A stretch of DNA of 62,462 nt, the filler included, from Circinaria calcarea (Eukaryota): NCBI GenBank assembly GCA_051942165.1. It is 10 parts of 10 records of this genome, joined end to end, with 100 filler letters (N's around TTAATTAATTAA, not from the genome) between each part and the next. Parts side by side here need not be neighbours in the genome. Positions count along the whole stretch, not along the records: positions 50,074 to 56,218 come from JAVECS010001658.1; 9 more parts are not named here. The stretch is one strand, 5' to 3'. A program made the position numbers and the translations under genes. A model generated the notes under the pieces. The model was given only the letters and a program-made list of their open reading frames with translations. It was not told where the DNA came from and did not search any database. Every line of letters starts with the position of its first letter. Position 1 is the first letter of the stretch. Shown here in pieces: positions 19,025-55,221 of this stretch.

Positions 19025-20342
19025 TTAAACCCGATTACCTTCCTCTCGCGCAGTCGCCGCATCATGCGCATCCACCGTGTACTCGTCCCTGACGCGAATT
19101 ATATCCAGCGGTATAGCTTTGGTGCCAAGCGTCGGCGACAAGGAGCCACTGCTTCCTTCCCCCACAATCTGTGTGACGTTTGTCTCCGTAGGTAAATATG
19201 CTGGTTTGGGGTAACTCTTATTTAGCAGCTTGCCGCCCGGTTTGGCTTTGTCGGAGAAGCCGGGGGACTTGTCGCGTGTGAAGAGGGAGCGGTAGGAAAC
19301 GAGACATGCTATTATGATAGCTGGGTGCGGGTTAGACTGTGGGTATCGAGTCGAGGGTTCATGGAGGCTTACCGATGCTGATCTCAATGGTGGTGCCGAG
19401 GTAATACCATGTGTTGTCTTCCCTAGGACCCCGGATTGAGATTTCGACCCTGATGATGGAGAAGATCATGGTGATGAGGGTGAGAGAGAACATGGCTATT
19501 AGAGCGAGCTTTTGCCGGCCGTTGATACGGACTTTCCATAACAACCTGATAGGGATAATTAGGACTGCAGCTTCACGTTAGATTACATGGTTTACACGAG
19601 CAATAACTGGACAGCTTACTAAGAAAGTCGGTTGAAAAGTCACATCCGATCTGAGTGCGGAAGGCAGCACGAACCGCGCGAGTAGCTGCTGGTGTACCGC
19701 ATACCGCTAAGGAGGGTTAGATCAAAGTCGATTGAGAAAGTGTCTATACTTACTCGCAGCAGCGTCGAAAGTAGTAAAGGTGCAAGGATAATATATAACG
19801 CCAATGGAAATAGCCCATCCCGCTATCGTTGCGATTAAAACACACCACCACAAGATCTTCTGGCCCCGGACATGATGTCCCAGCTTTCGGAAAAATGTCA
19901 AGAAAGAGAATTTAACGCAATATAGGGCGCAGAGGTTCAGAAAGGTCTCGGCGAATGCAACATGCAGCGATGATACGAAATGATCGATATACTCGGCGGA
20001 AGGTGTTATCCCCCCGTAAGCCACACGATAGCTAATATAGATAAACTCCAAGTTATTTCCCGCTGTCCAGAGGATGACGGTGGTGAGAAGGATCACCCAT
20101 GCGAGAATGACAAGAGCGTCATCATCAAAGAGTTTGTGGAAAACATGAAGACGGACATAAATCCTGAAGGCTACGAAACACAGGGAGAGAGCAACACAAG
20201 CCCATGCAGTACCCTTGGTGGACGAGTGTCAGCGACGAGTACGGCCCCATGTCCAATGAAGAGGAGGACATACCAAGAAAGCTGGCTGGGAAACCAAGAG
20301 AAGCGAGGCTGGATCAATATCCACCGGGGTAAAGCTTGACAT
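19025..20342 (-). CDS. PTH11-like fungal rhodopsin-domain integral membrane protein (no CFEM), 5 exons
   Basis: Spliced product MSSFTPVDIDP...|GTAWACVALSLCFVAFRIYVRL...FDDDALVILAW...CVKFSFLTFFRKL...|...CDFSTDFL|ILIIPIRLLWKVRINGRQKLAL...EISI|AIIIACL; multiple TM segments. Confidence 0.85.
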
Positions 20343-21848: not shown

Positions 21849-23733
21849 ATGCCCTCATATTCAATCCTGCCGTTTCCAGGCGCCAGTAACCATGAGACGA
21901 TGCCTCTTTATTTCACTAAGTTAAAGATGCTACTAGGCTTGTGTTTACTAGCTGCCATAATAATCTCCTATATCTTCACATATTTGCGTCTAAAAGACGT
22001 TGAGGGTCCGCGATGGGCTGCACTTTCTAGACTTTGGTTGGTGAGAATTCTCGCGTCTGGAGATAGTCCGACCGTGTTCGAGAAAGTTAATAAACAATAT
22101 GGTGAGTTGCGAATTTGTGTGACACAGGAGGCCCCTTAGTGTACCGCTTAATGAGAGAGGCATGGTATTGATCTGACTAATCTTAGGGCCACTCGCTCGG
22201 ATTGGACCGAATCATCTTGTTACGAATGATCCGGGCGTCATGCGAAAAATACTGGATTCTCGGTCCCGATATACCCGAAGCATCGGCTTCGACTCTTTCA
22301 GGGTTGATCCTCACGTTGGGAATGTCATATCCGAAAGGGACCCGACAAAACATAATCAGCGTCGTCGCCAGTTGGCCGCAGGGGTAATGTGTTGTTTCAT
22401 TGATACTATTTTCGTGCTGACTCCTTTCGAAGTATGGTGGAAGAGATGTTGATTATGTTGAGTCGAGTGTGGATAATCGTGTTAATGAAGTCATGAGAAC
22501 AATTGATGAGCGTTGGATATCGACTCCCGATAATACCAAACGACTCGACATATCTATGATGATACAGTATTTGTCTATGGACGTCATCACACATCTTCTC
22601 TTCGGCAAGCCTTTTGGATACGTCCACACCTATACTGATGTTCATGGTTTTATACAGATTATAAAGGAGAGATTACCGATAGTTGAGCAGTTCTTTGTTT
22701 TGACAGAGTTATGCGATCTACTATTATTTGTGTCATATGTTCCGGGGCTGAGGAGCATCCTACCTTCACCACGAGATAATTGGGGCATCGGTAAAGTTAT
22801 GGGGGTAAGTTTCCACATCGCGTGGCCCGGGGCATCTTGCTAATATTAATCTACAGATAGCCCGTCAAGCTGTAGGAGAACGCTTCATGCCAAACTACCC
22901 CCCTCGAAAAGACATACTTGGATCGTTCTTACGGCATGGACTTTCCAAAGAACAAGCAGAGTCTGAGATTACAGTCTCTTTGTGAGAAGCTTCTGTACTA
23001 GACACATTGATGGTTTCTCTCACTAACCGATCGGTAGATTCGCCGGATCCGATACTACAGCTACTTCTACACGCATAACACTGGTTAACATTATCACGAA
23101 TCCTGGAGTCTATGCAAAACTTCAGAAGGAAATCGATGATGCAGTAGCTGCGGGCGCGATTTCTCGGCCAATTCAAGTAGCCGAAGCTGCGAAACTTCCT
23201 TACTTGCAGGCCTGCATTAAGGAAGGTCTACGCATCTTACCTCCTATCGGATCTCTACGAGAACGAGTCACGCCTCCTGAAGGTGACATCATAAATGGTC
23301 ACTCGATCCCAGGCGGCGTCAATGTGGGCTTCAACATCCTGGGCATGCAAAGGAGTGAAGTTTTTGGTGCAGATCCAGATGTTTTCCGACCAGAACGGTG
23401 GCTACACCGAGACACTGATCGGTTGCAGAAGATGCAGATGGTGCTTGACTTGATCTTCGGCCACGGAGAGACGAAGTGCTTAGGGGTGAAGATTGCATAC
23501 TTGACTTTGAATAAGTTTTTTGTGGAAGTAAGTCAGCAACTTGCAGATAGAAGTGCTTCAGCGTCTGATACTAACCACTGCAGCTCTTACGTCAATTCGA
23601 CGTTGGGGTTTTGAACGCATATCATCCGTTCGAATCATGGTGTCATCAGATCTACTTTGTTAAGGAGCTTCACGTGCGGATTACGCGGCGGGATCAGGGA
23701 CAGGCGACGTGCAAGGAGAAAGACTTGCTCTGA
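21849..23733 (+). CDS. Cytochrome P450 monooxygenase (pisatin-demethylase-like clan), 6 exons
   Basis: YG|PLARIGPNHLVTNDP, I-helix FAGSDTTA, KEGLR (ExxR), FRPERW, heme motif FGHGETKCLG. Introns about 22102-22186, 22384-22432, 22805-22856, 22982-23037, 23528-23583; TGA at 23731. Confidence 0.93.
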
Positions 23734-50979: not shown

Positions 50980-53121
50980 ATGGCATCAATTTCTTCTCTC
51001 GACAAGGACTTGCGGAACATGCGCCTGGGCAAGTACACCCCGCAAATCGCAGATGAAACTAGAAAATGGATTGAAGAGGTTCTTGGGGAACAGCTGAAAG
51101 CCGGAGATTTACTGGAGGCGCTGAAGGATGGGATAGCTCTTTGCAAGTATAGGCACCTGCTGGTCACTTGGATCAACCTCGTTCTATTCACGGGTTCTGT
51201 CTGACACGAGAGGCATAGGTTAGTAAATCTTGCAATAGGACCCCCTGGGGTACGGTACAAGCAGTCATCGATGCCATTCGTTCAGATGGAGAACATATCC
51301 CACTTTCTCCGAGCATGTCAAGCACCTCCTCTCAATCTTCCTCCGCATGATGTCTTTCTGACAGTAGATCTATACGAAAGCAAAGACCCGACGCAAGTAG
51401 TACAATGCATTGGATCGTTCAGTCGAAAAGCAAGCTTACTCCAGCCCGAAAAATTCGTTAGAGCTATAGGCGTCAGGAGTAAGGGAATGATGAGCCCACA
51501 GAATACAGGAGCAAGCAACGGCGGTTATTCTAGTGGAAGTGGTGCTTTGCCTGGCAGGGCGAGAGCTCCAAGTAATACCAGTGAGAGTAGCACATCGACG
51601 CTCAATACAGCCTCCCGGGGCGTTGCTAGCGGTTTTGGTTCCACCAAATCTACCGGGTCGAGTAAATCCAACGCAGATCCCGATGGAGGGCACGCATCAC
51701 CCACTGGGGGCACTAGTAGCTGGAGTAAAAAGGGAGATGAAGGAACGACCATGCCGGCGTGGAATATTCACCAGTATGGCTATATGGGTGGAGCTAGTCA
51801 AGGAAATCAAGGCATCACGTTCGGTGGGCGGAGACAAATCACGACTCCGGCCCCAAAAGTACCTAGTCTTGCAGAAAAGGAGCGCAAAAGACGAGAGGAG
51901 GCGGTTGAGAAAGAACGGTTGAGGTTGCAGGCTGAAGAGGCGGAGCATATCCGAAAGGTGAAAAGACAAGCGGAAGAAGAACAAGAAAGGGTAGCTGAAG
52001 AGAGGAGATGGGAGGAGGAAACTCGGCAGCAACGAGAGCGAGAAAAGAAGGAGGCTGATATTGAGAAACAGCGCTGGGAAGAGGAGGAGAGGAAGTGGAA
52101 GGAGGAAGAAGAGATCCGCCTCAGAGAAGAGAAAGAAGCTGAAGCACGGATCGAAAAGGAACGTCAGCGGAAAAGAGCGAACAGCGATGCTCGCCTTAAG
52201 GGCCAATTCCTTAGCCAGTACCAGTCCGAGCAACGACAGGCATCTAGAAGCCTCAATGCAGAAGACCCTGAACGAGTTGCAGAACGTGAACGAGTAAAGG
52301 ACCTGGAGAGGCAATTGGAAGAAGCCAAGGAGCGCGAACGACAGTACGAACGTGAGCGACAAGCAAGACTTCGCTCCGATTCAAATCAACACAGCAGTAG
52401 GGCTCAATTCTCAACAGGACCAGTCAAACCCCAGGAAGCCCCCAGAAGACAGCCTGAGACACCATCGCACTCCCACAAGAATAGCGAAGATTCATGGCAA
52501 GCCAACGAAAGAGAATATCCTCGCCAAGAATGGTCAAGTCACCAAGAGACAGCCCTCGAACGCTCAAGGGACCCCCTTCCGACACCTCTGCAACCCCCAA
52601 GACGACTCCCCACCCCTGGATCACAATCTCCAAATCCGCCACCGCAGCCATCAAACCAGGAGATCTCTCCCTCCTTGCCTACACGCCCTCTTCCGGATCC
52701 AAAAGCCTACACCTCCCAACCCGCCACCTCCCGCACCTCCGCCTTCCTATCCACAAACCCCGCACCAACCCCCCCGAAACCAATCGCCCACCTCGCTCCC
52801 GAACTAACTTCCACCTCCGAACAAGACGCAGAAACCTCCCGCCGCACCGCCTCCCAGTCCAAAACTAAAGCCGGCGGCTGGGCCTCCAAATCTCTCCTCG
52901 AACGCGAGATGGAGCGCGAAAGGCAGCGACAACAGGAATGGGAGGAAGCGCAAAAGGCAACGAAGGAGGCGGCGGAGAGAGGCGTGAAAGATGGTGGTAC
53001 GGGTCCGGGAGAAAGTTGGGACATCAATCAGTATGGGTATATGGGGGGTGATAATCAGAATAGGGGTGGTGTGGTGTTTGGAGGGAGGAGACAGATCATT
53101 GGACCCAGGCCGAAGCCCTAG
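50980..53121 (+). CDS. Calponin-homology/transgelin (Scp1-like) actin-binding protein with coiled coil
   Basis: MASISSLDKDL, LLEALKDGIALCK|LVN, MPFVQMENISHFL, FLTVDLYESKD; two QYGYMGG...FGGRRQI calponin-like repeats. Intron 51147-51218. Confidence 0.9.
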
Positions 53122-53457: not shown

Positions 53458-54318
53458 TTATCTCCCATCCCCGCCAAATCCAGGCGGCGGTCCGAAGCCG
53501 CCCGGTCCTCCTACCGGACTCGGCCCTCCCATCTGTGGTGGCGGAAAGCCAGGCGGTGGGAATCTGAAATCGGGAGGTAGACCGCCGGGGGGAGGGAAGG
53601 GCATACCATTTGGCATCATGGGAGGCATACCGCCAGGGGAAGGGGCTGGAGGGAAAGGAGGGAAGGGTATGCCGCGGCCGTTAGGGCCAGGAGCTGTGGC
53701 GAGTTAGCTAGGAGGGTGGATGGACTATTATAAGTGAGATAGAAAGACATACGGGGAAAACCACCGGGGGGAGCGCCAGGCATTCCAAAGGGTGGTGGAG
53801 GCATACCGCCTGCAGTAGAATTTGTTAGCAATCTCTCGGAGCGAATGAGTTTACAGAGGTATTGTATACCAGGGAAACCAAACGGCGGAGGAGGAAACGG
53901 TTGTCCCGGTCCCGGATGTTGTCCTAACATGGGATTTGCGCCTGCTTGGCCTTCGGCCGCGTAGGAGGATGTGATGGAGTCGATGACGGATTGGGCTTTT
54001 TCATGGCCGATTTCTGCAAGTCACCACACCATTAACAGAGGTCCTTTGGCGTGAGTTATTACAAGTAGGTGAGAGGAGCATACGTTGGTAGTAGTCGACC
54101 ACATTCCGTAGGTGGTTCTTGCCAGTGTTGTGAGCTTTCCGTACACTCATGGAATCGTGGGTGAGGTACACATCGCAGTAGTCACCTTGGGCCGATCAAT
54201 ACTAATTTTAGGTGCCGACAGAGTGGGCTGTTACTAGAAATAGGGTACCTACAGAAGAGTGAGGCGTGTCAGTAAAGCTTTTGTTAGATATAGGGATAAG
54301 GAACTTATATTTCGGCAT
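53458..54318 (-). CDS. YHC1: U1 snRNP protein C (U1-C), 6 exons; first intron AT-AC; 6-nt microexon
   Basis: Exons 54318-54309, 54258-54253, 54185-54084, 54013-53870, 53809-53753 and 53693-53458 give [57 protein letters not shown] plus a Pro/Gly/Met-rich tail (matrin-type zinc finger). Confidence 0.95.
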
Positions 54319-55221
54319 GATTGCAGTTGTATTGGCTTTACTATATGGAGAGGCGCAAGTTCCAGAGACCTGGACCTTCAAATCAATATGGTAATTTCTC
54401 CATAGGAGACTTTCTGGGCTACTCAACGGCTGAAAGAGAGTCCGGGCCCCGATGTGGACCTTGCTGAAGTCGATCGTCTTCCTTTTCTTCCCCTTCAATC
54501 GATGACAGCTAAGAAGTCAGCTCTAAGTAATTGCTCACAGAGTCGTGTTAATGCAACCCCGTTGCAAGCCAGAGGTCTTGTCATTCTGCGTTGAATTCGT
54601 AGAGCCGGAGCCTTCGGTGGACACTTTCACCAACCTTGAAAATTTTCCTTAACTAATCTCCCTGCTATCTATCTCATATGCTTCTGTCAACCAAATCATC
54701 CCTTTCCCAGCTATGTAGTAATGAATCATACAAGTGTTGATTTGCTTAAACAATGATGGTGTTGCTTGATATCTGCAAACTTTAAGATATCACGTCTTAA
54801 GTTCCATAGCTTTAGCTAGGTGCCACGGACAGTGTGTGGAGATAACACCTTATAGGCTCATATAACCAGGTGTCTTTCCTTGATGGGAGTTTCTCCAACC
54901 AGGTTAGGTGTATTATTGTTTTCATCCTGTATGTTGAGATTCAGCGTGGTAACTCAGGAAAAAGGTTTTCTAGTACCATGGCACTTACTACGTCTAAAGT
55001 CAAAGCACAGCTAGTGTGATGGCATCGAGAGGTGTCTGACGTCGCGTATAAAAGCATGGGCGGATGCTTTTGCATATGATATTATTGTTCTCTGCATATA
55101 TAAAGAGCCTTGAGGCCACCTATCAATCGATATTCAAACCATCACATTCTTTCCATCAAAGAAAAACGTCCAACTCCCTACCACCAATTAAGCAATCATA
55201 CCACATCTCGCAACCTCCAAG

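Follow-up and report, generated by a model that had tools for sequence, protein, structure and literature searches.

Introduction

Introns that begin with AT and end with AC while otherwise carrying the signals of the major spliceosome (U2-type AT-AC introns, also called type II) are a known, very rare kind, with 24 cases counted among 610,067 introns of five species (PMC1557818). The animal ones (in SCN4A, SCN5A and some two dozen more) have a donor that is of the U2 type in all other respects, with borders that distant species have conserved (Sheth et al. 2006, PMC1557818); a 'very strong /ATAAGT consensus' is reported for the metazoan ones (PMC5029451). As for fungi, AT-AC ends account for 0.03% in gene models (PMC4084796) and are described as rare in annotations (PMC7072748). 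The intron analysed in this work is probably a further example. It is the first intron of the gene for U1-C, a core protein of the U1 snRNP (small nuclear ribonucleoprotein), and it lies on the minus strand of a 62,462-nucleotide (nt) window of the Circinaria calcarea assembly GCA_051942165.1, along which all coordinates given here are counted.

The U1-C intron shares with the animal type II introns its AT...AC ends, its otherwise U2-type donor, its rarity and the conservation of its borders. Unlike them, it is found in filamentous ascomycetes reported to have no minor spliceosome, across three fungal classes, and it is only 47–56 nt long, with a branch site 10–13 nt from the AC and an exon of just 6 nt behind it. 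The AT-AC intron nested in RPL30 of Saccharomyces cerevisiae (Gould et al. 2016, PMC5029451) is likewise natural and likewise belongs to a fungus without a U12 spliceosome; it is, however, used in 1–2% of transcripts, its donor is unlike /ATAAGT and the machinery is left open by the authors, whereas the AT-AC intron of U1-C is the only route to a conserved protein and has textbook U2-type signals. The yeast intron engineered to carry G(+1)A together with G(-1)C, to which PMC11585973 and PMC5029451 refer, has the same compensating pair, but it is a laboratory double mutant, whilst the U1-C allele is natural and ancient. U12-type AT-AC introns have the terminal dinucleotides in common with it, but both their /ATATCC donor and their TCCTTRAY branch site are absent from the 23 clusters of related introns described below. 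A related proposal is a single sentence in PMC1557818, hypothesizing AT-AC II introns in xylanase genes of filamentous fungi; it concerns another gene family, and U1-C goes unmentioned in it. A literature search, which covered few subscription journals, returned no description of an AT-AC intron in U1-C, and the supplementary junction tables of fungal RNA-seq studies could list it uncommented; the AT-AC matches in PMC3091305 were strings of polyketide synthase domains and irrelevant.

Results

Gene model

On the minus strand, the start of U1-C is read by joining ATGCCGAAAT to TCTTCT after removal of a 50-nt AT-AC intron (ATAAGTTCC...TTTACTGACACGCCTCAC), and TCTTCT to GTGACTACTGC after removal of a 67-nt GT-AG intron (GTAGGTACC...GGCCCAAG), which gives MPKFFCDYC. 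The six exons, joined by their coordinates (Table 1), make up an open coding sequence of 555 nt for a U1-C protein of 184 amino acids (aa). An earlier sequence-only reading of this DNA had held that excising the AT...AC segment restores the conserved U1-C start, that no GT-AG solution does so, and that the intron has a U2-type donor changed at +1 only, a U2-type branch site and a CAC acceptor. The coordinates turned out to be exact and the frame open to its end, the claim about GT-AG solutions holds in the sense meant (see below), and the signals can be read in the window and recur in relatives. With its AT...AC termini, a donor that equals the U2 consensus save for +1, the U2-type branch TACTGAC and no U12 motifs, intron 1 has the sequence features of a type II intron, and it is reasonable to regard it as natural, with A(+1) and C(-1) compensating each other and signals of the major-spliceosome kind. 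A second CTAAC, 25 nt from its 3′ end, has no match in the conserved columns of the related AT-AC introns. The four remaining introns of the gene are ordinary GT-AG introns of 59–70 nt. Runs of N in the window are short periodic masks, and the U1-C gene is free of them.

The identity of the gene is given by its zinc finger. The peptide of exon 3 matches the Pfam family zf-U1 (PF06220) with an E-value of 2.9e-17, and aligns only from profile position 7 of 38; because the match begins there, positions 1–6, including the first zinc-binding Cys, must be encoded upstream. The full model has the profile match, the C2H2 ligands and the MPK(F/Y)(F/Y)C start of the family, reading MPKFFCDYC...H...H. 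Its closest named proteins are those of the Lecanoromycetes Schaereria dolodes (P0124; 82.6% identity over 172 aa), Lambiella insularis (P0045; 81.6% over 179 aa) and Icmadophila ericetorum (78% over 191 aa), which makes a fungus that forms lichens, or a relative of such fungi, the probable source of the DNA.

Could canonical splicing produce the same start? A scripted list of open single-intron models with GT-AG or GC-AG ends, covering ATGs within about 1.2 kb upstream, holds 35 entries, and MPKFFC comes out of none of them. In the frame of exon 3 there is a TGA nine codons upstream, and the sole AG past that stop is at 54187-54186; in the frame of the micro-exon a TGA lies five codons upstream, and the open stretch 54268-54254 contains neither AG nor ATG. 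Canonical models with other N-termini do exist, such as the one encoding MTRPLACNGVALTRLC-DYC from the ATG at 54584 with the donor TCT/GTGAGC at 54538, and this model and another one without Cys6 would be plausible picks for a gene caller.

The composite pattern ATAAGT-N20-45-CTRAC-N5-10-YAC has a single match in the window, which is exactly intron 1, with 0.18 matches expected and at least one match in 16 of 100 shuffles. The motif by itself is not rare, and the weight of the claim lies on the position of the intron and its conservation in relatives. A control pattern for textbook short GT-AG introns (GTAAGT...CTAAC...YAG) matched at 19707-19753 (minus strand) and 23528-23583 (plus strand), i.e., two matches against 0.16 expected, a number reached in 2 of 100 shuffles.

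Intron 1 in related loci

Scanning metagenome contigs with a U1-C protein alignment matched 334 stretches, of which 309 were confirmed and the best 80 kept, each being read from the ATG to Cys6. Among these 80 loci, intron 1 is AT...AC in 38 and GT...AG or GC...AG in another 38; one locus (L063) has no intron at all, one (L077) has intron 2 only, two (L013 and L055) are truncated at the 5′ end, and not one has the mixed ends AT-AG or GT-AC. Clustering of the 77 parsed loci and the window at 90% identity gave 52 clusters: 23 AT-AC (including the window), 25 GT-AG, two GC-AG, one intronless and one with intron 2 only. The AT-AC locus L035, which comes on top of these clusters, encodes DYCDIY, falls outside the parsing pattern and was read by eye. 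The comparison across relatives, which the sequence-only reading had called for, thus bears out its view that base-call errors at both termini are improbable: the ends are not such errors, because AT...AC recurs at this position in 38 of 80 related loci, with no mixed case among them. A relative is also present in a public DNA metagenome run (X1, with a 0.04 share of words) as a 242-nt contig over 54091-54329 that differs in 19 letters; no difference at the ends of intron 1 is among those listed, but with 12 of the 19 outside the listing the contig carries little weight.

Exon 3 and the beginning of exon 4 are almost identical across all clusters, and a tree would not resolve how many times the AT-AC state originated, because the coding exons are nearly invariant. 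In the locus without introns (L063, 1-1282), 144 nt precede an open coding sequence. Either a contig of the cDNA type or a gene devoid of introns would account for it, and over 69 aa its protein shares 97% identity with one of Cladorrhinum (P0104).

Signals of the AT-AC class

The donor of the AT-AC class is ATAAGT in 21 of 23 clusters, the other two having ATAGGT (L018) and ATATGT (L052), compared with GTAAGT in only 11 of the 25 GT-AG clusters (Fisher p 6.5e-4, relatedness uncorrected). The acceptor is CAC in 12 clusters and TAC in 11. Intron 1 is 47–55 nt long in this class (56 nt in L035) against 50–98 nt in the GT-AG class, and its CTRAC branch site is 10–13 nt from the 3′ end in 23/23 clusters, against 10–30 nt. 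The micro-exon that follows is TCTT(C/T)T in all 23. Aligning the 23 clusters leaves as invariant columns only ATGCC.AAAT/ATA.GT, CT.AC and AC/TCTT.T/GTAG, without any variation in the ATGCCNAAAT of exon 1, whilst the interior of the intron is unalignable.

Several other explanations of these signals were tried and rejected. A U12-type intron would have a /ATATCCTT 5′ site and a TCCTTAAC branch site 10–20 nt from the 3′ end, and a search for U12-type 5′ sites ([AG]TATCC) or branch sites (TCCTTRAY) found them in 0 of the 23 AT-AC clusters; the TCCTTAT in intron 1 of the window occupies intron positions 7–13, away from the 3′ end. A conserved GT-AG decoy inside intron 1 was dismissed as well, since the bases behind the internal GT (+5/+6 of ATAAGT) vary among the 23 clusters, and so was a small CUAC/GUAG hairpin around the micro-exon, which fits TAC-type acceptors only. 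Rfam gave no matches in the window.

The signals of the next intron go with those of intron 1. The donor of intron 2 is GTAG(G/A), with GTAG at +1 to +4, in 23/23 AT-AC clusters, against 0 of the 15 GT-AG clusters that have intron 2, whilst position +6 of this donor and position -3 of the AC acceptor vary freely across the AT-AC clusters. Micro-exon and invariant GTAG together read TCTTCTGTAG/G, resembling a pyrimidine tract followed by AG, and going by this resemblance the element might act as a stand-in polypyrimidine-AG signal for early recognition of a 3′ site whose intron lacks an AG.

Taxonomic spread

A search with the exon-3 protein returned 510 matches, 120 of them listed, and many of those listed are uninterrupted open reading frame (ORF) calls or mis-modelled genes with N-termini that read straight through the introns. 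These read-through peptides carry the footprint of the intron ends: the form MPKYK...(H/Y)S(S/F)VG-DYC corresponds to AAA T/AY AAR ... (C/T)AY/TCTTYT/GTAGG, and the form MPKCK...PVFC-DYC to T/GT AAG ... CCA G/TC TTC TG, with the reservation that codon degeneracy resolves +2 and -1 as pyrimidines only. Among the Lecanoromycetes, both AT-AC ends are seen in Lambiella insularis (MPKYK...HSSVG), the donor in Xylographa soralifera (MPKYK) and the acceptor in Gomphillus americanus (MHISVG). Among the Eurotiomycetes, Penicillium sp. IBT 31633x (MHSFVG) and Polytolypa hystricis (MHSSVG) show the acceptor only. Both ends (MPKYK...SSVG or SFVG) are found in the Dothideomycetes Aureobasidium sp., A. melanogenum, A. 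namibiae and Rhizodiscina lignyota, and also, without intron 2, in Microthyrium microscopicum of the same class. GT-AG forms or forms lacking intron 1 occur in named Sordariomycetes such as Chaetomium tenue, Fusarium and Metarhizium.

Two read-through peptides, P0009 (...RQSFVG...) and P0001 (...KQSFVSS...), point to a CAG acceptor before the micro-exon, the exon 3 of P0001 being identical to that of the window; the intron-1 donors of both lie outside the ORFs and their DNA outside the 80 loci, and either a return to GT-AG or a mixed form may be behind them. In three other proteins (P0116, P0066 and P0214, on contigs of 24.7 kb to 2.2 Mb) the ORF runs from upstream directly into MPKFFCDYC...YYQQIG, and all of the first three intron positions are therefore empty in these U1-C genes. 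The IGQEKA form known from Penicillium proteins is seen in P0116, which hints at a loss of introns within the AT-AC group.

A probably partly spliced contig and annotated starts

The Aureobasidium-like contig L077 (1030 nt) begins 13 nt before the ATG and reads ATGCCGAAATTCTTCTGTAGGT... What is missing from it in comparison with the genomic locus L056 is precisely the 51-nt AT-AC intron and the 57-nt intron 3, whilst intron 2 is kept, at 89% identity. Its junction is AAAT/TCTTCT, because the base before TCTTCT in L056 is a C. The protein is 96.7% identical over 123 aa to that of A. namibiae and 95% to that of Aureobasidium sp., whose annotations both read through an AT-AC-type intron. The simplest explanation is that L077 is probably a partly spliced transcript from a metagenome or metatranscriptome assembly. 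A one-base frame shift is present farther on, in its proline-rich tail.

The start of U1-C was surveyed in 31 named proteins of Eurotiomycetes, Dothideomycetes, Lecanoromycetes and Lichinomycetes, seven of the class assignments having been checked. Only two of the 31 are annotated with the correct MPKFFC start, those of A. pullulans EXF-150 (P0219) and Lithohypha (P0220), from which it follows that some pipelines implicitly accepted the AT-AC intron. The other 29 read through introns, start at Met18 or have invented first exons. The true start and the first zinc ligands are usually missed because standard gene callers accept only GT-AG and GC-AG.

Features of the locus

The gene model is given in Table 1. 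Converging on U1-C there is a 638-aa frame, open from stop to stop, with a Glu/Arg/Lys-rich middle and a repeated ...QYGYMGG...GGRRQI... motif close to both ends; a Pfam search with this frame returned no family.

Table 1. Coordinates of the U1-C gene and of the neighbouring frame in the window.
Feature	Position	Strand	Basis
Exon 1, ATG CCG AAA T (start codon plus 7 nt, phase 1)	54309..54318	-	direct reading
Intron 1, 50 nt, U2-type AT-AC, ATAAGT...CAC	54259..54308	-	sequence; equal ends and position in 38/80 related loci
Intron 1, terminal AT	54308-54307	-	
5′ splice site ATAAGT, U2-type consensus with A at +1	54303..54308	-	sequence
Branch site TACTGAC (predicted branch A 54269, 10 nt from the intron's 3′ end)	54268..54274	-	
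3′ splice site CAC	54259..54261	-	sequence
Intron 1, terminal AC	54260-54259	-	
Micro-exon TCTTCT, 6 nt (completes Phe4, encodes Phe5, first base of Cys6)	54253..54258	-	
Intron 2, 67 nt, GT-AG, donor GTAGGT, 3′ end CCCAAG	54186..54252	-	
Intron 2, donor positions +1 to +4	54249-54252	-	
Exon 3, remainder of the zf-U1 zinc finger	54084..54185	-	Pfam PF06220, E 2.9e-17
Introns 3-5, all GT-AG, 59–70 nt	54083-54014, 53869-53810, 53752-53694	-	
Exons 4-6, stop TAA	54013-53870, 53809-53753, 53693-53458	-	spliced model
638-aa open frame	51205-53121	+	

Discussion

The results of this work make it likely that intron 1 of U1-C is a genuine, constitutively used U2-type AT-AC intron, held in place by epistatic lock-in. 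U1 small nuclear RNA (snRNA) would pair with +2 to +6 of AAAT/AUAAGU, the G-C pair at +1 being lost, and we propose that +3 to +6 are held at the consensus because of this loss; the stricter donor of the AT-AC class is what one would expect of a site that, having lost the +1 pairing to U1, depends on all its other pairs, and it agrees with the /ATAAGT consensus reported for metazoan U2-type AT-AC introns (PMC5029451). U2 would pair with UACUGAC, placing the branch A 10 nt from the end of the intron. At exon ligation, the usual contact between G(+1) and G(-1) would be replaced by a compatible one between A(+1) and C(-1), and such a contact would make the nearby AC, rather than an AG, the acceptor, as well as account for the strict co-occurrence of A and C at the two ends. 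Removal of an ordinary GT-AG intron would then join the 6-nt exon to exon 3.

The U1-C gene is essential in yeast. If it is so in these fungi, a single reversion to AT-AG or GT-AC would cripple an essential gene, and harmful single reversions would put both ends under purifying selection without any need for a special regulatory role. Lock-in of this kind is the most likely reason why the AT-AC ends persist. Parker and Siliciano, in 1993, reportedly worked with a yeast intron carrying the changes G(+1)A and G(-1)C, i.e., the same pair as here.

The premises from which the sequence-only reading had argued agree with the sources consulted. According to PMC2846911, U12 snRNAs and U12 introns are missing in Ascomycota and Pezizomycotina; we infer that the major spliceosome removes intron 1, because of this reported absence and because the signals are of the U2 type. 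That changes at the two ends compensate each other is stated in PMC11585973 (citing Parker and Siliciano 1993), where the two terminal bases of an intron pair in a non-Watson-Crick manner and A-C can replace G-G. That U1-C stabilises the pairing of U1 with imperfect 5′ splice sites agrees with PMC4383343, which reports extra stabilisation by U1-C of oligonucleotides mismatched as +1C, -1C, +5C, +3U and +4U.

The AT-AC arrangement seems to be old, as judged from the sequences, being common to Lecanoromycetes, Eurotiomycetes and Dothideomycetes, with GT-AG or GC-AG at the same site in Sordariomycetes-type and other loci. The three classes with AT-AC group together in published fungal phylogenies, apart from Sordariomycetes and Leotiomycetes, and given this grouping the simplest reading would be a single old origin of the AT-AC state.

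Some observations, on the other hand, weigh against genuine splicing under lock-in or limit what can be drawn from it. Lock-in explains neither how the double change became fixed nor why the G at +4 of intron 2 is invariant. If the origin was single, the perfect association of donor and acceptor counts as one event with retention, and not as many independent covariations. P0009 combines a CAG-type acceptor with a GTAGG-type donor of intron 2, its intron-1 donor being outside the ORF, and might be a mixed form. In clusters L016, L032 and L046 the AC is preceded, at a distance of 3 nt, by an AG (AAGCAC or CAGCAC), and splicing to this AG would insert one codon and change Phe4. L077, which has no poly(A) tail, could also come from a genome that lost introns 1 and 3.

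That the AT-AC ends are kept for a function beyond lock-in, be it a U1-C-dependent set-point or switch-like output or a pair of incompatible ends that blocks skipping of the micro-exon, we hold to be unlikely. The output-setting version is the autoregulatory sensor suggested by the sequence-only reading, in which a donor mismatched with U1 at +1 (A) and -1 (U) ties productive U1-C mRNA to recognition by the U1 snRNP and U1-C, and U1-C thereby sets its own level. The intron does belong to the gene of a protein that contacts the 5′ splice-site/U1 duplex, the rarity of U2-type AT-AC introns makes its presence in this of all genes a notable coincidence, and it is retained in 23/23 AT-AC clusters. 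Moreover, as U1-C gives extra stability to mismatched sites (PMC4383343), a donor mismatched at both +1 and -1 should be more dependent on it than most. The same help at a +1-mismatched site, however, would mean that more U1-C leads to more productive U1-C mRNA, and the sign predicted from PMC4383343 is therefore positive feedback rather than homeostasis. Besides, the interior of the intron has no conserved element other than its splice signals, no conserved decoy is seen around the internal GT, and L077 (albeit one contig) has lost intron 1 whilst keeping intron 2, a poor match to intron 1 being the slow step. Retention in all clusters is equally predicted by lock-in, and the coincidence is open to selection bias, the intron having been noticed owing to its gene. 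The sensor is quite improbable on this balance, and a regulatory role of intron 1 is possible but unsupported by the sequences.

The other functional proposal, in which incompatible splice sites guard the micro-exon, is more doubtful still. Here A(+1) would ligate to C(-1) only, and the G(+1) of intron 2 to AG only; the A(+1) donor would therefore be unable to join the AG of intron 2, skipping of the 6-nt exon (to MPKCDYC) would be prevented, and this advantage could have helped to fix the double change. Micro-exon and intron 2 are indeed present in 38/38 AT-AC loci, whilst intron 2 is absent in 12 of the 27 GT-AG and GC-AG clusters; gene predictors skip the micro-exon in GT-AG species, giving MPKC-DYC in Hymenoscyphus (P0092) and Parascedosporium (P0086), from which the skipped form appears to be a formally available product; and the A-C/G-G pairing rule (PMC11585973) is what the proposal needs. 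Yet 15 GT-AG clusters keep the same micro-exon without AT-AC ends, AT-AC ends without intron 2 are indicated by three read-through proteins (P0016, P0055 and P0065 of Microthyrium), and the association may reflect one ancestor. As for an artefact or a wrong model, whether through sequencing errors at the ends, a pseudogene, a U12-type intron or another GT-AG first exon (ATG 54584, donor 54538), the 35 open canonical models show that alternatives can be written on paper. Against this stand the same A and C at 38 independent loci, an intact coding sequence, the conserved MPKFFC that no alternative model yields, and U12 motifs in 0/23 clusters of fungi in which U12 splicing is reported to be absent (PMC2846911); a reading of this kind is hardly credible and close to refuted.

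In practical terms, gene callers restricted to GT-AG and GC-AG usually lose the start of U1-C together with the zinc ligands that come first in its zinc finger. For the biology of splicing, the AT-AC intron of U1-C offers a test case, natural and deeply conserved, for the rule by which the first and last bases of an intron pair in the major spliceosome, in fungi that reportedly lack a minor spliceosome and include the easily manipulated Aureobasidium, Penicillium and Aspergillus. As it lies in the gene of a protein that helps U1 to read 5′ splice sites, the idea of a feedback is directly testable with minigenes or allele swaps.

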